64,000 nucleotides of DNA, from the NCBI RefSeq assembly GCF_030028105.1, contig NC_092399.1:13330001-13394000 (forward strand). The letters run 5' to 3'. The notes under the pieces were generated by a model. It worked only from the letters and a program-made list of their open reading frames with translations, did not search any database and was not told where the DNA came from. The translations under genes and the position numbers were made by a program. This DNA comes from Mobula birostris. Its lineage: Eukaryota. The first letter of the stretch is position 1. Each line of letters opens with the position of its first letter. Below, in pieces: positions 5,499-51,045 of this stretch.

Positions 5499-5746
5499 TC
5501 AAATCCAAACAACACGCACAGCACACACAAAATACTGGAGGAACTCAGCAGGCCTGGCAGCATCTGTGGAAAAAAGTACAGTCGATGATTCGTGCCGAGA
5601 CCCTTCGGCACGACGGCCCTGCCAAAGGGTCTCGGCCCGAAACGTCGACTGTACTTTTTTCCACAGATGCTGCCTGGCCAGCTGAGTTCCTCCAGTATTT
5701 TGTGTGTGTTGTTTGGATTTCCAGCATCTTCAGATTTTCTCTTGTT
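5499..5746. mobile_element. Fold-back (palindromic) Penelope pLTR pair with two degenerate hammerheads
   Basis: 5523-5607 is the near-perfect reverse complement of 5625-5709; possible TSD TGAGAAAA (5491-5498 / 5747-5754). Confidence 0.8.
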
Positions 5747-6057
5747 TGAGAAAAGAGAATACCATTTTTACCGGAAGCAGGATCGGAAGAGGTATGGTCA
5801 AGATAGCCGAGAGGAGAATGATGTGTTGTATGCGGAGGCTCATGGGGTTGATCTCATTGCTGTTTATTGAGCCTGCCCTGTGCAAATTGGATGCAATGCA
5901 TTTATTTTCAAAAAGTACTTAAATTGGCTGTGAACCTATATAAGAGTGTTTGCCTCCTTTGCTGACACCAGTTCCAATTCCAGCATCTACTGCTACTCTT
6001 AACAATAATCTTTTCAGCTCCTTTGAAGTAAGCCTGTCCCATGTTAAAATTTCATTA

Positions 6058-17155: not shown

Positions 17156-17496
17156 TATGATGGTTTGCTATTTGAACACCATAAACAGAATATTTATTTT
17201 TCTCAGCATCTTGACAAATGTGCTTTACCTTCAATCGGTTGCTATAGAAATGATATCAAATAAAGAAGTGCTCAAAATCAATAATGATCACACCAGATCA
17301 AATAATATCCAGGAAGGGTCTCTGCATTTAATATTACTACCCCCACACAACACTTTCTTGATCTCTTTCCCCATTCAATAACGCATGCAACTAGTTCTCC
17401 TTCTCAAAAACTTTAAATATCTACTTTGAAGCTTAAATTGTCTTTGTATGGTACCTTGTCAGTGAATTGGGATCGAAAGTTTATTACAATAATGCA

Positions 17497-17875
17497 ACAC
17501 ACACAACGTGCTGGAGGAACTCAGCAGGTCAGGCAGCATCTGTGGAAATGAATAAACAGTCGACATTTCGGGTTGAGACCCTTCACCAAGACTGAGAAGG
17601 AAAGGGGAGGATGCCAGAATAGAAAGGTGTGGGGAGGGGGATAGAGGCTAGCTGGAAGGTGATAGCTGAAGCCAGGTGGGTGGAAAAAGGTCAAGGGCTG
17701 GAGAAGAAGGAATCTGACAGGAGAGGAGAGTGGCCCACAGTCCTGAAGAAGGGTCTCACTCTGAAACATTGTCTATCTATTCATTTCCATAGGTGTTGCC
17801 TGTCCTGTTGAGTTCCTCCAGCATTTTTTGTGTGTTGCTTTGGATTTCCAGTATCTGCAGATTTTCTCGTGTTTG
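17497..17875. mobile_element. Fold-back Penelope pLTR pair with TSD
   Basis: Inverted pLTR arms; 10-bp TSD CAATAATGCA (17487-17496 / 17876-17885); degenerate hammerheads at ~17558-17593 (-) and ~17739-17775 (+). Confidence 0.82.
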
Positions 17876-18375
17876 CAATAATGCACATGGGCACGCACCT
17901 CAAGTAAAACAATCTAAAATCCTTTGATCCTATAGTCCATTGTAAATTATATCTAGCATCCTGGGACATATTTCAACCTTCTTTTGGATTGGAACAATGT
18001 GGTCAAAATTCAAATGCTTAAAACTGTGTGGTCAAAATGAAACTTAACATGAAAGATTAAGACCTCTATGAGTACCTGTTGAACTGACTTAACATGCTAG
18101 TGAAAATATGACTTTCCTAGTGTCATGATTTCTGTGAGAATAATGATTACTATGCTTAAAAGCAGCTTTATGAACACCTAAGATCCCAAAATATTCCACG
18201 TAAATGAAAAGACAGATTTTCATTTATCTCTTCTTACGAACATCCATCGTTAAGTTTTAAGTTGCTTGCCAAGTTATAAAATATGATCATACCTTGAAGC
18301 AGATGTTACATGATAACATAATTCTCCATATGTGTCCAAAATGCTCTGTTTTTCAGCTTTTTAAAGTAAATCAGT

Positions 18376-19179
18376 ATGTTTGCTATTGAGGCACTGGGAG
18401 CCCCTGAAGTTTCCTCAAGTTCTCAACTTTGCAACAGAACGCATGAACTAGAAATCAGGAGTGAAGCCATTAGTATGACAGATGTCAAACAGGACATGAA
18501 TTCTAACTTTGTGGTAGAGCGATCCAGCAAGAATGAGATCTTTGGCAAGCTTCCGTCTGAAGGGACCGCATTGAGAAATAGTCCTCAACTGAAAAATGAA
18601 CCGGATTTGCAAATGAAGAAAGAGAAGGGCAGTCCTTTTTCCCTGAGTTTGGAGTCAGGGAGCACCAAACCACCTTCAGGAGAGCGTGTCCGAATTCCAC
18701 CAGAGGGAGCCGAAATGGGCCACCCCAGCAAACTTACCAAGGTTGTGGATTGTGAAGAGCTTACTGTCTCTCCCTCAGATGACAATGGCTATTCCAGCAG
18801 CTGCTTGAGTATCGAAAGTCCAGATAGTGTAGAAGGAAACATCTGGGAGGCAGGTGAGACTGTCAAGAAGGATAAACTGGATCCTTGGCAACAAGCTGAT
18901 ATTGAAAGCATTCCAGGGACTCCACCTGCTGCAGACTCTTTCCTGCCTTCAATATTTGAAGCAGTCCAGAGTCTTCAAGAGAAGCAAAGATTCAAAGAGC
19001 AAGAGAAAGAGAAGCACCAAACCCAAGTGATCATGTACCGCCGCTTGGCCTTGCTGCGATGGATCCGTAGCCTCCAGCAGAAAGTCGTGGACCATCAACA
19101 CCGGCTGCAGGAGAGCTACGACACCATCCTGAGCAACCGCAAAGAGCTGCTGAAGTTCATCAAACAGGGAGTTGTCTAG
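18376..19179 (+). CDS. C1orf216: UPF0500 protein C1orf216 homolog (267 aa, single coding exon, C-terminal coiled coil)
   Basis: Starts MFAI like the human protein. Conserved blocks PPEGAE, SPSDDNGYSSSCLSIES and KEQEKEKHQTQVIMYRRLALLRWIRSLQQKVVDHQHRLQESYDTILSNRKELL recognised from memory of C1orf216. Splice acceptor CTGTTTTTCAG ends at 18356; in-frame TAA at 18367-18369 fixes the start codon. Confidence 0.93.
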   Translation: MFAIEALGAPEVSSSSQLCNRTHELEIRSEAISMTDVKQDMNSNFVVERSSKNEIFGKLPSEGTALRNSPQLKNEPDLQMKKEKGSPFSLSLESGSTKPPSGERVRIPPEGAEMGHPSKLTKVVDCEELTVSPSDDNGYSSSCLSIESPDSVEGNIWEAGETVKKDKLDPWQQADIESIPGTPPAADSFLPSIFEAVQSLQEKQRFKEQEKEKHQTQVIMYRRLALLRWIRSLQQKVVDHQHRLQESYDTILSNRKELLKFIKQGVV

Positions 19180-38907: not shown

Positions 38908-40415
38908 GACATGCAAAAACAAGCCCCAGGGCAAGGCTAGGCTGATAAAAGGCCACAATGATTGTGAAAGAACACTGGATGGAGTCCACAGACAGAAGAT
39001 GAGGTCAGTGGTGAACTGGCATAAAGGGAATGCACCATGAGAAGCAAATGGGACGTCCAGTATTTGGAGGGAGCTGTGAGGGGAACAGATGGGTGGCATG
39101 ATTGGCATATAGAAAGGCAATGGCATGCAGAAAGGCTCTGCCTTAAGTACGAAGAAGAAAAGTGAGAGGATGGAAATTTGGGGTAATAGCATCCTTTCCA
39201 GATGCGCATATTCGCACTTGCTATCACAGCTTGTAACTCCCAAAAACTTCATTCTGTACTATATAATCATCATCTCCCAAAGGCAATCCTTGCTGCAGCT
39301 CTGGACGGTCTCTGTTGCCTCGAACCATAAAGGACATATCTCCTGTGGCCATTATTCTTCACCTAACTCTCCAGGCTCTTGTTATCCCCTCAAAGTGTCC
39401 TTGCACTACCATCCAGTCTACATGGAAAATGATGTGTGCAATGTAGAACACTCTTCTGGATTGCATATTAACAATAGCAAGAACTTGCCGCAGGTCCTCT
39501 ACTGAAACCAACAATAGCGGTTTCAGAGCTGCGCTACCCATGAAACACAACAGGGCAGTTGAACACATATTGCATTAAAAGTACTCATTCTTCATGAGAC
39601 ATAGGAGCAGGATTAGGCCATCTGGCCCATCAAGTCTGCTCCGCCATTCAATCATGTCTGATCCTTTTTTTTTTCTCCTCCTGAACCCCAGTTCCCGGCC
39701 TTCTCTCTGAAACCTTTGATGCCATGTCCAATCAAGAATCTGTCAATCTCTGCCTTAAATACACCCAACAACCTGGCCTCCACAACTGCAGGTGGCAACA
39801 AATCCCATAAATTCACCACTCTTTGGCTGAAGAAATTTCTCTGCTTCTCTGTTTTGAAAGGGCGCCCCTCTATCCTGAGGCTGTGCCCTCTTGTCCTAGA
39901 CCCTCCACCATGGGAAACATCCTTTCCACATCTACTCTATCTAGGCCTTTCAACATTCGAAAGGTTTCAGTGAGATCCCCTCATCTTTCTGAAATCCAGC
40001 GAGTATAGACCCAGCACCATCAAATGTTCCTCGTATGATAACCCTTTCATTCTTGGAATCATCTTTGTGATCCTCCTCAGGACATTTTCCAATGCCAGCA
40101 CATCTTTTCAAAGATGAGGGGCCTGAAACTGTTCACGATACTCATGGTGAGGCCTCACCAGTGCCGTATAAAGCCTCAGCACTGCATCCTTGCTGTTATA
40201 TTCTAGACCTCTTGAAATGAAAACTAACATTGCATTTGCCTTCCTCACCACCATTTCAACCTGCAAGTTGACCTTTACGGTGTTCTGCACAAGGACTCCC
40301 AAGTCCCTCTGCATCTCAGATTTCTGGATTCTCTCCCCATTTAGAAAATAGTCCGCACATTTATTTCTACTACCAAAGTGCATAACTATGCATTTTCCAA
40401 CATTGTATTTCATTT

Positions 40416-41622
40416 CAAACTAAACTTCCTCCAAACTAAAGGTGTAGCTATGGGCACCCATATGGGTCCTAGCTATGCCTGCCTTTTTGTTGGGTTTGTG
40501 GAACAATCTATGTTCTGTGCCTATTCTGGTATCTGTCCCCCACTTATCCTTTGCTACATTGACGACTGCATTGGCGCTGCTTCCTGCACGCATGCAGAAC
40601 TCGTTGACTTTATTAACTTTGCCTCCAACTTTCACCCTGCCCTCAAGTTTACCTGGTCCATTTCCGACACCTCCCTCCCCTTTCTAGATCTTTCTGTTTC
40701 TGTCTCTGGAGACAGCTTATCCACTGATGTCTACTATAAGCCTACTGACTCTCACAGCTATCTGGACTATTCCTCTTCTCACCCTGTCTCTTGCAAAAAC
40801 GCCATCCCCTTCTCGCAATTCCTCCGTCTCTGCCGCATCTGCTCTCAGGATGAGGCTTTTCATTCTAGGACCAGGGAGATGTCTTCCTTTTTTAAAGAAA
40901 GGGGCTTCCCTTCCTCCACTATCAACTCTGCTCGTAAACGCATCTCCCCCATTTCACGTACACCTGCTCTCACTCCATCCTCCCGCCACCCCACTAGGAA
41001 TAGGGTTCCCCTGGTCCTCACCTACCAATCCACCAGCCTCCGGGTCCAACATATTATTCTCCGTAACTTCCGCCACCTCCAACGGGATCCCACCACTAAG
41101 CACATCTTTCCCTCCCCCCCTCTCTCTGCATTCCACAGGGATTGCTCCCTATGCAACTCCCTTGTCCATTCGTCCCCCCCATCCCTCCCCACTGATCTCC
41201 CTCCTGGCACTTATCCGTGTAAGCGGAACAAGTGCTACACGTGCCCTTACACTTTCTCCCTTACCACCATTCAGGGCCCCAAACAGTCCTTCCAGGTGAG
41301 GCAACACTTCATCTGTGAGTCGACTGGGGTGATATACTGCGTCCAGTGCTCCCGATGTGGCCTTTTATATATTGGCGAGACCCGACACAGACTGGGAGAC
41401 CGCTTTGCTGAACACCTACGCTCTGTCCGCCAGAGAAAGCAGGATCTCCCAGTGGCCACACATTTTAATTCCACATCCCATTCCCATTCTGACATGTCTA
41501 TCCACGGCCTCCTCTACTGTAAAGATAAAGCCACACTCAGGTTGGAGGAACAACACCTTATATTCCGTCTGGGTAGCCTCCAACCTGATGGCATGAACAT
41601 CGACTTCTCTAACTTCCGCTAA
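40416..41622 (+). CDS. Penelope-like reverse transcriptase C-terminal half + GIY-YIG endonuclease (5'-truncated; the ORF-track start lies in flanking CR1)
   Basis: QTKGVAMGTHMGPSYACLF, CYIDD, LPFLDL, TDVYYKPTD, CKRNKCYTC, GVIYCVQCSRCGLLYIGETRHRLGDRFAEH, PDGMN; about 400 codons with no stop. Confidence 0.88.
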
Positions 41623-41914
41623 GGCCCCACCTCCCCCTCGTACCCCATCTGTTACTTATTTTTATGCACACATTCTTTCTCTCACTCTCCTTTTTCTCCC
41701 TCTGTCCCTCTGAATATACCTCTTGCCCATCCTCTGGGCCCCCCCCCTTGTCTTTCTTCCCTGACCTCCTGTCCCATGATCCTCTCGTATCCCCTTTTGC
41801 CTATCACCTGTCCAGCTCTTGGCTCTATCCCTCCCCCTCCTGTCTTCTCCTATCATTTTGGATCTCCCCCTCCCCCTCCAACTTTCAAATCCCTTACTCA
41901 CTCTTCCTTCAGTT

Positions 41915-41950
41915 AGTCCTGACGAAGGGTCTCAGCCTGAAACGTCAACT
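41915..41950 (+). ncRNA. Minimal type I hammerhead ribozyme in the pLTR
   Basis: AGTC-CTGACGA-AGGGTCTCAGCCT-GAAA-C-GTC-AACT; core intact, one stem I mismatch. Confidence 0.65.
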
Positions 41951-43182
41951 GCACCTCTTCCTACAGATGCTGCCTGGCCTGCTGCGTTCACCAGCAACTT
42001 TGATGTGTGTTGATTGTATTTCATTTGCCACTTTCTTGTCCATTCTCCTAATCTGTCTAAATCTGTCTGCATCCTACCTGTTTCTTCAACACTATCTGCC
42101 CCTCCACCAATTTTCATATCATCTGCAAACTTGGCAACAAAACCATCTATTCCATCATCTAAATCATTTACATACAGCATAAAAAGAAGCGGTCCCAAAA
42201 CTGACCTCTGTGGAACACCACAAGTCACTGGCAGCCAACCAGAAAAGGATCCTCTTATTCCCACTCACTGCTTCCTACCAATCAGCCAATGCTCTAACCA
42301 TGTTAGTAACTTTCCTGTAATACCATGGGCTCTTAACTTGGTAAGCAGCCTCATGTGTGGCACCTTGTCAAAGGCCTTCTGAAACTCCAAATATACAACA
42401 GCCACTGCATCCCCTTTATCTATCCTACTTGTAATCTCCTCAAAGAATTCCAACAGGTTTGTCAAGCAGGATTTTCCCTGAAGGAAACCATGCTGACTTT
42501 GTACTATCTTGTCCTGTCTCACAAAGTACTCCATCACCAAATCCTTAACAATTGACTCTAACATCTTCCCAACCACTGAGATCTATAATTCCCTTTCTGT
42601 TGTCTTCCTCCTTTCTTAAAGAGTGGAGTGACATTTGCAATTTTCCAGTCCTCTGGCACCATGCCAGAGTCCAATGATTTCTGAAAGATCATTTCTAATG
42701 CCACCACAATCTCTAACGATACCTCTTTCAGAACCCTAGGGTGCAGTTCATCTGGTCCAGGTGACTTATGTACCTTTAGGTCTTTCAGCTTTTTGAGCAT
42801 CTTCTCTCTTGTAATAGTAACTGCACCAGCTTCTCTTCCTTCACACACTACAACATCAGGCATACTACTAGAGTCCTCTCCAGTGAAGACTGATGCAAAA
42901 TACTAATTTAGTTCATCAGCCATGACCCCCGTTATAATTTCTCCTGCCTCATTTTCTAGCGGTCCTATATCCACTCTCACTTCTCTTTCATTTTTAATAT
43001 ACTTGAAAAAACTTTTACTATCCACTTTGATATTATTTGCTAGCTTGCTTTCATATTTCATCTTTTCCCTTCGAATAATTTTTGTGTGTCAACCAAATCA
43101 TTGTCTTATTGCCAGGAAAATGGTATAAAACAATCTCTAAATCCACATCCTTTAACATTTTAATGGGCATGGGCCATTTTAG

Positions 43183-46382: not shown

Positions 46383-47230
46383 GAAAAATGATCAGAAGGG
46401 GAGAAATGCGTAGAGGCCAGGTTTTATTCAAATTAACATTATCCATCATATTCTGGATTACCTGGGGAACAATACCGCAATTTGTATTTATTTAGGAAAC
46501 TTGATGCAGAAAATTTGCAATGAGATATAATAGTGGCAAGGCTTTTTTCTCAGTTGTCTAATGAGCACAGAGCTATTTCAAGGAGACTAAGGAGATAGGA
46601 AGTTTCAGGCAAGTGGAAGGGTTTAGAGAGAATTTCAAAATTCTGCGCAAGTATAGCTGAATGCACAACTACTAGTAATAGATAAATATGTGCGTGGCCA
46701 GAGACAGATGGTTCAGAGGCTGGTTATTCCAATCCAAGATCGGGAAAAAAAAACTAAAGGAATGTGGATTATGAGTCAGAAAGACATCCAGACACTCAGT
46801 TGGATAACTTGAATTGGAAATTATTGAGAACTATTGTATTTACTCATCTGCAGTTGTGATTTATAAAATGAGCCTTTTGGAATAGATAAATTTTGACAGA
46901 AAATAAATTGGTAACTCTATTTAAATCTAGATATTCTGCAGCATTTGTCTGTTTAGGAATTATATGGAAATACAAAATCAAGCGGCCATTTCCTGCTTCC
47001 TCTCCACTCAGGTCACTGGAGTTAGACACTGTTGCCTAGAAACTGGCTTTTACCTCCCTTGGTGCACTAACACCCACCTTGAAAATAGCTGTGAAAATGG
47101 GCAAACTAATTTTAAAAGCAGCAGAATGCGGTTTTGTATGTAGGATTATGCACCAAACACAACCTGGGGACTGCATGCAGAGCTTCCAGCTGCCGTATCA
47201 ATCACTGGAAAATGAGTTGGTGCTTCAAGA

Positions 47231-47706
47231 AACACACATAAAAGTTGCTGGTGAACACAGCAGGCCAGGCAGCATCTATTGGAAGAGGTACAGTCGACGT
47301 TTCGGGCCAAGACCCTTCGTCAGGACTAACTGAAAGAAGAGCTAGTAAGAGATTTGAAAGTGGGAGGGGGAGGGGGAGATCCAAAATGATAGGAGAAGAC
47401 AGGAGGGGGAGGGATGGAGCCAAGAGCTGGACAGGTGATTGGCAAAAGGGATATGAGAGGATCATGGGACAGGAGGCCCAGGGAGAAAGAAAAGGGGGAG
47501 GGGGGAAGCCCAGAGGATGGGCAAGTGGTATAGTGAGAGGGACAGAGGGAGAAAAAGGAGAGAGAGAAAAAGAATGTGTGTATATAAATAAATAACGGAT
47601 GGGGTACGAGGGGGAGGTGGGACATTAGCGGAAGTTTGAGAAGTCAATGTTCATACCATCAGGTTGGAGGCTACCCAAATGGAATATCAGGTGTTGTTCC
47701 TCCAAC
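47231..47706 (-). mobile_element. Penelope-like 3' fragment with TSD
   Basis: TSD CTTCAAGA (47223-47230 / 47707-47714); closely matches the reverse complement of ~41540-42010. Confidence 0.88.
47292..47327 (-). ncRNA. Minimal type I hammerhead ribozyme (best-preserved copy)
   Basis: Minus strand AGTC-CTGACGA-A-GGGT(CTTG)GCCC-GAAA-C-GTC-GACT: core nucleotides, stem I and stem II intact. Confidence 0.8.
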
Positions 47707-48251: not shown

Positions 48252-49394
48252 TAATGTCACATTGTTGACTGCCGCACAATGTGTCCTTCCGACAGCTTCC
48301 GTCTTTGCCAACAGAAGGTGAGTGGTGAGGGGCCTGTGACACCACCAGGTGTTAGAATATTGCTGAGAAAATATCACCGATGCTGAGGTAAATTGTCTGT
48401 TAAAATACCCAGAAAATCTCCCGACAGGCACAGTTCAGCCGAGAATACACACGGAAGACATGGGCACAATGTATCCAATTTTTCAGCTTGTAATGGACCT
48501 CAAATGGTAATAATTTTTAAATACTTTAAGTCGTTAAATTTATTTTTTTAAGTTACTATTGCAGTTCCATGAGCAAACAATTTCTCAAACAATTGATTCA
48601 AAATCATGAAACATTTAAGCATGGACTTTCCTAGAATATCGCTCTTTTACAGATATTTTTCTAGGTGTTTTGACAATTTTATGATTGAAAGCATGCTGAA
48701 CTATTTGCTTAATGTTTGATTTTGTGTCTGATTCTACTGTATACGATCTTGCGACTCTGCAGGGTTACTTCTAAGAGCAATTTTCTTTTTGTGGTATAAT
48801 CCTGGATACTTTCCTTGTTTACAAGAGTGGAAACAGTGCTGTAGGTGGGGCAGTTTTCATAACGTTGGAGAGGAAATATTTCAGTAGGTGTACAAGCTGC
48901 TTTGCTTTGTCTTGGTTAATAATTTCTTATTGACACAAGCGTGTCAGTAAAAATCCAGTGGAGGTAGAGCAATTACACAAATATAATGCCCCAAAACACC
49001 CATCTGAATGTTTGGAATTCAGGACTAGCTGTATGTCAGATGACATTGTAGGCTAATGTAATTGATGGATACGTACATACATAATTCACGACCACTGACA
49101 CCGAGTTGGGGGATCACTTTATGAGGCTATTCTGATGCGAGGACGTAATCACATAAAGTTCTGTTACCGCGTTTTTGGGATCAGTGTTTGGAGCACGGCT
49201 CTGCTTAAACATAAAATGCCTCGCACTACCTTATTTGCGAAACCTACAACATTATGCCTGTCACCAATCACAAGTTCAAATGTAATTTAAAAACGCAAAC
49301 ACGAGGAATTCTGCAGATGCTGGAAATTCAAGCAACACACATCAAAGTTGCTGGTGAACGCAGCAGGCCAGGCAGCATCTCTAGGAAGAGGTAC

Positions 49395-49430
49395 AGTCGA
49401 CGTTTCAGGCTGAGACCCTTCATCAGGACT
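49395..49430 (-). ncRNA. Minimal hammerhead ribozyme
   Basis: AGTC-CTGATGA-AGGGTCTCAGCCT-GAAA-C-GTC-GACT. Confidence 0.7.
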
Positions 49431-49668
49431 AACTGATAGAAGAGCTAGTAAGAGATTACTAGGTATGTGGATGGTAGGGGACTGAAGGGCCATGGTCCCA
49501 GTGCAGGTTGATGGGATTAGGCAGTTTAAATGGTTCAGCATGGACTAGATGGGCCCAAGGGCCTGTTTTAGGGCTGTACTTTTTCTATAACACTATAAAT
49601 AGTTAAAATATAAAAAAAAACAATTGTAATTCCTTAAAAGTAATCTCTTATTAGCTCTTCTTTCAGTT

Positions 49669-49704
49669 AGTCCTGACGAAGGGTCTCAGCCGGAAACGTC
49701 GACT
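49669..49704 (+). ncRNA. Minimal hammerhead ribozyme (weakened stem II)
   Basis: AGTC-CTGACGA-AGGGTCTCAGCCG-GAAA-C-GTC-GACT. Confidence 0.6.
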
Positions 49705-50207
49705 GTACCTCTTCCTAGAGATGCTGCCTGGCTTGCTGTGTTCACCAGCAACTTTGATGTGTGTTGCTTCAAATGTGATTGTTGTTCCACTATACGCATG
49801 TATGCATCCGAACGAAGCAGGGTTCCTCCACGGCCAGGGTGCAAAATACAGTGCATCCGGTCACAGACAGCACGCAGAACATACAGTTACGATCCAGCGC
49901 ATCCGGTCACACAAGTAATATTAGCACAAATGCCTGAGTGATATGGCCTGAAGATTGATGGTGCATGGGATGTAATCCTGGAGCCACGTGTCTGAGATCT
50001 CTAGTGTTGGAGTAATACTGGGACCTAATTCTGCTGGTCCTGGCACAAAATCTCAGGTCCTATTGATTTCAATGAGAATTCCATAGCTGTGGATTAAAAT
50101 CACACAGGAAGGTATGCTTTTTTAAAATTACTTTGTATTATTGTAATAATCTGTAATTAATTACAATTGAGTCCAAATGTTTTTTTATATATATTTAACT
50201 ATTTATA

Positions 50208-51045
50208 GTGTTATAGAAAAATTACAGCCCTAAAACAGGCCCTTGGGCCCATCTAGTCCATGCTGAACCATTTAAACTGCCTAGTCCCATCAACCTGCAC
50301 TGGGACCATGGCCCTTCAAATCCCTACCATCCATGTACCTATCCAAACTTCTCTTAAACATTGAAATCGAGCTCGCATGCACCACTTGTGCTGGCTGCTC
50401 ATACCACACTCAGTTTTCCCTCAGGTTCCTCTTAAACTTTTCACCTTTCACCCTTAACCTACAAACTCTGGTGGTAGTCTGGCCCAATCTTCATGGAAAA
50501 TACCTGCTTGTATTTACCCTATCTATACCCCTCATAATTTTGTATACCTCCATCAAATCCCACTCAATCGTCTACATTCCAAGGAATAAAATCCTTACCT
50601 ATTTAAATCCTTCCCTTATAACTCAAGTCCTCCAGACCCAGCAACATCCTTGTAAATTTTCTCTGTACTCTTTTAACTTTATTTACATCTTTCCTGTAGG
50701 TAAGTGACCAAAACTGCACACAATACTCCAAATTAGGCTGTGCCAATGTCTTACACAACGTCAACATAACATTCCATCTCCTGTACTCAGTACTTTGATT
50801 TATGAAGCTCAACGTGCAACAGCTCTCTTAACAACCCTATCTGCCTGTGACACCACTCACAATGAACTATGGACCTGTATTCCCAGACCCTTGTGTTCCA
50901 CCTCACTTCTACCATTCACTGTGTAAGACCTCCCCTGACTGGTCCTACAAAGGCACAACACCTCACACTCGTCTGCATTCAATTCCATCTGCCATTTTTC
51001 CAGCTGGTCTAGATCGCGCTGTGAGCCATGATAGTCTTCCTCGCC
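50208..51045 (-). mobile_element. CR1 3' fragment
   Basis: ORF 50603-50812 LEYCVQFWSLTYRKDVNKVKRVQRKFTRML. Confidence 0.82.

Follow-up and report, generated by a model that had tools for sequence, protein, structure and literature searches.

An inverted copy of neighbouring DNA between the two pLTR arms of a Penelope-like insertion in Mobula birostris

The window—the whole 64,000-nucleotide stretch of Mobula birostris DNA analysed here (contig NC_092399.1, positions 13,330,001 to 13,394,000, forward strand)—holds, working from left to right, two head-to-head pairs of pLTRs at 5519–5748 and 17494–17876, which belong to other subfamilies than the unit described below; at its centre the second pair has 145 nt of a repeat frequent in other loci, without a close local source. 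A 269-codon open frame follows (18370–19176, plus strand), matching DUF4653 (PF15546, E=1.3e-58); it is an exon of a host gene and lies 30 kb to the left of our unit. Beyond this lies a 1.8-kb 3′ fragment of a Penelope-like element (PLE; 40345–42179, plus strand) with RT- and endonuclease-like frames, in which RT-like motifs can be picked out by eye across 40345–41619, a segment that gave no Pfam match. The unit itself occupies 49275–49780, with a related sequence to its right:

49275–49287 (+): left TSD, 13 bp; the best flanking direct repeat, with one mismatch to 49768–49780.
49288–49457 (−): pLTR arm with the tail, from a Penelope-like element, its 3′ end facing outward; defined by sequence comparison.
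49395–49430 (−): minimal hammerhead motif of the minus arm, read from the sequence; core letters kept, position 11.1 a U (49407), a frequent variant.
49445–49462 (+): left junction hairpin (DNA fold, junction view) with a 7-bp stem and 4-nt loop; its last 3 nt are common to the source.
49460–49631 (−): captured DNA, an inverted copy of 50159–50341 from which ~10 source nt are missing; 94% identical, and top among the genome matches scored.
49632–49644 (+): filler of the right junction; ~5 nt that match nothing are followed by 8 nt equal to 50127–50134, the last 3 common with the pLTR.
49642–49769 (+): tail-less pLTR arm, 3′ end outward; its inner end is at the same element position as that of the left arm (35/35).
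49669–49704 (+): minimal hammerhead motif of the plus arm; position 11.1 a G (49692), stem II closing pair broken.
49768–49780 (+): right TSD, flanking direct repeat; its first 2 nt are common with the arm end.
50127–50341 (+): source sequence for the centre, made up of a unique flank, as far as about 50204, and the 3′ end of a CR1-type LINE.

The two arms form inverted repeats (49327–49460 and 49639–49772, 94.8% over 134 nt) and are identical at 119 of 126 positions (94.4%). Whilst the left arm extends to 49288, the right one ends at about 49769; in element positions their outer ends lie at 149 and 110, so that only one side carries the ‘tail’. The unit thus combines hammerhead-bearing, inverted, head-to-head pLTRs with a single enclosing TSD and a one-sided tail of 30–40 bp. 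The original prediction had described this layout, and had placed a 13-bp TSD with one mismatch around the whole; both were found as described, save that the plus arm starts at about 49642 rather than ~49640.

Between the arms, 49460–49626 is the reverse complement of 50174–50341 (94.0% over 168 columns). Beyond this main piece, whose source lies 402–569 nt from the right-hand edge of the unit, an 11-mer (49621–49631) matches 50159–50169 and an 8-mer (49637–49644) matches 50127–50134, all in the order of the source; the gap of ~10 nt in the copy relative to its source may be a later deletion. The source belongs to a decayed, minus-strand LINE that is longer than the captured piece and runs on to about 51000—presumably of CR1 type, judging by ORF2 C-terminal motifs recognised in its translation—and what was captured consists of this element’s 3′ end together with a unique, AT-rich flank. 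A search of the 4.0-Gb genome with 49440–49660 produced 3,430 candidates, of which the best 40 were scored, making any count a lower bound. After the query itself, the local site is the top match (94%, query positions 21–187); the remaining 38 are CR1 tails, 82–88% identical, which extend no further than query position 164 and miss the greater part of the flank. Within these best 40, therefore, the earlier proposal that a centre of ~175 bp was copied in inverse from 50159–50341, at this locus and not from just any CR1 copy, is borne out by the genome alignment, and a multi-copy composite repeat is ruled out as its origin. What lies inside the TSD is, in short, a templated insertion: less than 250 bp of non-element DNA, copied from the local genome.

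An empty version of the site is present in a relative. In one contig of organism C, sequence corresponding to 48800–49288 is joined to that of 49804–49956 with 20 letters between; 515 bases of the window are thereby reduced to 20, a net loss of 495 nt as against the 493 expected for the unit plus one TSD, the figures being alignment lengths from this single contig. The flanks there differ at 35 and 14 letters, about 7–9%, and since the unit is absent, the insertion is younger than the split from organism C. A contig of organism A, which may come from the assembled sample itself, matches 48800–49310 without difference, crossing the left outer junction by 23 nt, less than our 31-nt minimum. For organisms B and D, none of the contigs listed spans any of the junctions. 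Copy and source differ by 6%, which makes an assembly artefact unlikely; the inner junctions are as given by the assembly. Arms (94.4%) and centre versus source (94.0%) are equally diverged, as expected for one event; the sequences support our regarding the unit as a single old insertion made in one integration.

The inverted layout is not peculiar to this locus. Exact head-to-head motif pairs, defined by two exact 15-mers 30–330 nt apart, number 1,996 in the genome, with none for the reversed control. We sampled 125 distinct pairs: 50 unselected (the first listed, all on contig C1; viewed with flanks of 1.5 kb for 15 and 5 kb for 35) and 75 chosen, the window unit among them, by five patterns that favour non-consensus centres and short arms. 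Duplicated loci (L046–L058, L127–L139, L146 and L149) were excluded from all counts; L141, L142, L144 and L145, being short versions, were excluded from the classification of fillers, and their 10-kb versions (L176–L179) from the arm-end, TSD and statistical counts instead. A TSD of at least 10 bp with at most one mismatch encloses 104/125 pairs (44/50 of those unselected), compared with 1/125 in shifted controls, the family median being 14 bp; 115 of the 125 have one tailed and one tail-less arm. Inverted pLTRs are, then, the routine product of this family. Its longer copies run into an open reading frame with a GIY-YIG domain (L104:164-1093; PF01541, E=2.2e-4, at 21.9 bits slightly under the curated cut-off of 22.6), and CxxxxCxxC is present in their translations. 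A Cys-rich linker before the endonuclease, together with RT phylogeny, marks the Neptune clade, to which the family may belong.

When sorted by what lies between their arms, 73 of the 125 pairs have no filler of at least 20 nt, 29 have a PLE-derived one, 10 hold host DNA copied locally and 13 hold other sequence; with some of these 13 seen within just 1.5 kb of flank, ten is a lower bound for the local class. The suggestion that the locus exemplifies a route for local DNA capture is therefore upheld by inverted pairs elsewhere whose centres match DNA nearby. Seven of the captures are inverted (the window unit, L031, L060, L063, L069, L140 and L162) and three direct (L070, L112 and L193), with centres of 83–255 nt that are 89–99% identical to sources 179–1,811 nt from the unit edge, five on the side of the tailed arm and five on that of the tail-less arm; two come from the 50 unselected pairs (L031 and L112). 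The TSD is clear in nine of the ten, that of L193 being degenerate (14 nt with 2 mismatches, by eye). For nine of the centres, all but that of L112, the remaining members of an 88-locus, 10-kb set contain nothing that matches at 89% across 80% of the centre. A bias towards inversion was considered and dropped (7/9, p=0.18, and weaker still at 7/10 with L112), as was L064 as a local capture, its centre being the element’s own 5′ region; L066, L068, L074 and L089 have no source within flanks extended to 15 kb on each side.

Several of the other fillers deserve description in their own right. The 394-nt centre of L141 (G000:C4:226798448-226798882) has a 100% match, inverted, 538 kb away (L199, G000:C4:226260416-226260809). 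The matching stretch begins at the TSD of a lone pLTR insertion, and the arm of that insertion departs from L141's at several letters; this is either a recent distal capture or a pair of linked insertions. L117 (G000:C1:63852584-63852803) and L119 (G000:C1:66658761-66658979) are head-to-head units 2.8 Mb apart, with a common interior (96.8% identical) whose 25-nt filler occurs only at these two places; their TSDs differ and their tails are on opposite sides, which suggests that the interior was copied between them by homology-guided invasion or gene conversion. In L074:4818-5170 (G000:C4:18559017-18559369), the filler is a 340-nt piece, 93–95% identical, of a tandem repeat with a unit of ~860 bp that forms arrays on many contigs, several close to contig ends, and because this repeat is so widely spread not all templates are provably near. 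Finally, the 437-nt centre of L066 (G000:C13:3621643-3622165) starts with a T run and, read by eye, is apparently inside a 16-nt direct repeat of its own, as would be expected had a retroposon inserted into the junction at a later time.

This range of fillers bears on the template. The RT could have run off the element RNA onto a nascent transcript of the neighbouring DNA, and template jumping by R2 proteins is described in the available text of PMC11371274; PLE-derived fillers do outnumber local ones (29 versus 10 of 125), RNA-to-RNA jumps or re-priming probably occur in the family, and the mixed orientation of the captures is compatible with transcripts of either strand. We nonetheless find a jump onto RNA decidedly unlikely for this unit: the only host exon found, with 34 of 108 unmasked frames scanned, is 30 kb away, and both the collinear, short re-priming seen here and the location of the two traced distal templates on the same contig as their units (538 kb and 2.8 Mb) are better fitted by proximity to DNA.

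The hammerheads lend the unit little prospect of activity. Both arms keep the unpaired core letters and the palindromic 15.2–16.2, so that the ‘intact hammerhead core’ of the original prediction holds for these letters; it does not for the pair that closes stem II, G10.1–C11.1 being replaced by G-U in the minus arm (49407) and G-G in the plus arm (49692). Among 301 scored copies, position 11.1 is C in 149, T in 142, G in 5 and A in 5. According to the available text of PMC4209133, this pair is conserved in minimal PLE hammerheads and no cleavage was observed for single minimal motifs. In the predicted fold of a read-through transcript the two arms pair with each other (−302 kcal/mol), hiding both motifs; one would be freed only in an RNA starting inside the centre. 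The nearest pLTR on the same strand, and the only nearby dimer partner, is at 47224–47354 (minus strand, 92%), 2.1 kb to the left of the minus arm. An Rfam scan of the window returned no match at the gathering score, and the folds of single-arm RNAs do not differ from those of shuffles.

Accordingly little remains of the view that the locus is a functional cassette, with a ribozyme on each strand, which transduces the captured DNA. That interiors can be copied is seen in L117 and L119, with one head-to-head interior and different TSDs, although their opposite tail sides do not fit simple copying of a whole cassette. For the window unit, no second match spanning arm, centre and arm was found among the best 40 scored of 3,430 candidates, the layout is routine, the stem II pair is lost in both arms, and the arms would pair with each other in a read-through RNA. 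We regard a mobile cassette as next to impossible, and place in the same bracket an assembly artefact, which the 6% divergence and the empty site exclude. No function is apparent at the locus, and we predict that the unit is a dead fossil.

The inner ends of the arms bear on how these and the centre came to be joined. Of the 115 pairs in which just one arm is tailed, the arm without the tail extends further towards the centre, by over 5 nt, in 48 and the tailed arm does so in 36, with the two agreeing within 5 nt in 31; two pairs were dropped from later statistics because their alignment failed. In nine of the ten local captures the inner ends of the two arms differ by no more than 4 nt in element position (35/35 in the window unit, and 76/75, 110/112 and 116/112 in others), the exception being L069, at 8 nt. 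Equal inner ends occur in 21/46 pairs with filler against 7/59 direct joins (p=1.3e-4), and in 5/7 against 7/36 of the unselected pairs (p=0.012); where both arms are 50 nt or shorter, the difference (16/26 versus 6/18) is not significant (p=0.12).

The junction letters carry further detail. At the left junction, the hairpin (−5.1 kcal/mol as a DNA fold, equalled by 3 of 200 shuffles) adds 5 nt to the cDNA end, the last 3 of which are the start of the source, and is likely to be a snap-back extension of that end. At the right, the first 3 nt of the same extension together with the arm end make 6 nt that match 50127–50132. The same junction letters are found at 25 other places in the genome, many of the 20 we viewed being head-to-head joints with self-copied bits; the AGT present in both arms, which we had considered as the start of the parent RNA, is therefore better explained as hairpin extension, since it recurs at unrelated joints. 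These microhomologies are short and may in part be due to chance, and several junctions of the other local cases show none.

Equal arm ends and common, non-consensus junction letters (in the window unit, L140 and L060) could together be accounted for by a single tailed cDNA that left its RNA, copied neighbouring DNA, folded back and then copied itself to make the tail-less arm; self-priming is indeed proposed for PLE palindromes in the accessible part of PMC3846280. Such an origin strikes us as unlikely here. The common letters are those of an intrinsic hairpin extension, as their recurrence indicates; the outer end of the tail-less arm is retained at its usual place in 8/9 local-capture units (97–110); and the tail-less arm is often longer inward, by up to hundreds of nt. 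As a fold-back copy cannot exceed its template, and the tail-less arm is the longer in 48/115, separate priming of a cDNA from either end of the target is the likeliest course, and arm lengths rule out single-cDNA fold-back as a general rule.

Perfect palindromes are fragile, and an ordinary palindromic insertion might later have broken at its centre, by hairpin or cruciform cleavage, and been patched with local DNA. Symmetric ends could result from such a central cut, and a short delay would be beyond the resolution of the arm and centre ages. Still, those ages are equal as far as they can be read, both junctions bear extensions typical of free cDNA ends, and direct joins are mostly asymmetric (52/59), leaving a symmetric precursor in the minority; we judge later repair very improbable. 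The earlier proposal that capture took place during integration, by template jumping or repair, by comparison agrees with the single TSD, the local source and the equal divergence of arms and centre.

The layout, TSD, source, junction letters, empty site and recurrence are direct observations, and to our minds they are probably explained by a Penelope-like insertion in which the inverted local copy was made as a bridge, joining two cDNAs primed from both cut target strands. A staggered cut, offset by 13 nt, would provide two 3′ ends, both priming reverse transcription—one at the start site of the tail, the other ~40 nt further in. Both cDNAs would stop at one and the same RNA position, then fold back on a 4-nt-loop hairpin, gaining 3–5 nt apiece. 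One end would then pair with nearby genomic DNA through 3–6 nt and be extended by ~170 nt, probably in up to three collinear steps (50127–34, 50159–69 and 50180–50341), before annealing to the other cDNA by ~3 nt, with the gaps filled thereafter. On the simplest path, the right cDNA would pair at 50127, copy to 50341 and anneal to the left, with the reverse direction yielding the same sequence; copying could be by the PLE RT or by a host polymerase such as Pol theta, as the sequence fits either. More generally, trimmed ends would be joined directly at short palindromes, and untrimmed ends, where both cDNAs ran off the same RNA end, would be bridged by synthesis.

Priming from two ends fits the behaviour of a purified anole PLE protein which, in the available text of PMC11167929, cleaves both strands and extends them, with synthesis beginning at two RNA positions between which the tail lies. 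Against the proposal, mixed orientation and sources on either side mean that no single resection geometry covers all cases; and the tie between bridging and untrimmed cDNA ends comes with the caveats that the contrast in equal ends is not significant for arms of 50 nt or less and that 75 of the 125 pairs were chosen by patterns favouring short arms. As a wider and more tentative idea, which we hold with rather less than even confidence, PLE integration may generally pass through a two-ended intermediate, both of whose cDNAs run off one RNA 5′ end, and whose untrimmed ends are bridged by strand invasion into chromatin near in space, mostly at 0.2–2 kb and sometimes at 0.5–3 Mb along the same chromosome.

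Were two-ended bridging to hold, a few percent of head-to-head insertions would amount to local duplications of small size, numbering between tens and hundreds in a genome. They would form a dated series of fossils for the way in which the ends are joined in PLE transposition, whose course once the first strand has been made is described as still open in the accessible text of PMC11167929 and PMC8557442. Local-capture units would record that joining—priming at two ends, snap-back, and a bridge spanning a greater distance than is reported for L1—and offer countable predictions for an in vitro PLE system, namely equal inner ends, source distance and dependence on Pol theta.

Much of this has precedent, with inverted pLTRs and templated insertions (of L1 and R2) already in print; the comparisons that follow refer to the available portions of the sources. 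Insertions of EN+ PLEs likewise have head-to-head pLTRs, one TSD and a tail of 30–40 bp at one end (PMC3846280, PMC8557442), and PMC3846280 reports a few cases of unrelated sequence caught between solo pLTRs inside TSDs, as well as host spacers in Pen1; in those texts the captured DNA is not traced to the neighbourhood of the insertion, as it is here for 10 units. We located no publication tracing PLE fillers to the insertion’s own flank, in a literature short of most subscription journals and older Penelope reviews. The metazoan PLE minimal hammerheads of PMC4209133 have the same core letters, extra base between 9 and 10.1 and palindromic 15.2–16.2, and differ in keeping the closing pair that both arms here have lost. 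Unlike non-LTR retrozymes (10.64898/2026.07.22.740005), our copies are inverted, not tandem, with no second copy of the unit among the best 40 of 3,430 candidates. For R2, cDNA ends snap back on the cDNA or, less often, on nearby target rDNA, mostly after full-length synthesis (PMC11371274); in these snap-back 5′ junctions of R2/PRINT, too, a cDNA 3′ end primes extra synthesis before joining, but the insertions are engineered, one-ended and in rDNA, whereas ours are natural, two-ended and fixed in the germline. The centre itself has a likeness in L1, for which 22 templated insertions are reported (10.1101/2024.08.27.596794), typically <250 bp long and with the template no more than 15 bp from the site, along with three templated cases near the site in a further paper (PMC11702581) and a strand-invasion model like synthesis-dependent strand annealing; there too, non-element DNA of <250 bp is copied from near the site, although the L1 template is typically within 15 bp and at one 5′ end, and here it lies 179–1,811 nt away and between two overlapping arms. 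What the ray genome holds is thus a real and recurrent variant of known processes, the two-armed insertion of PLEs combined with templated bridging, at a longer range than that of L1.
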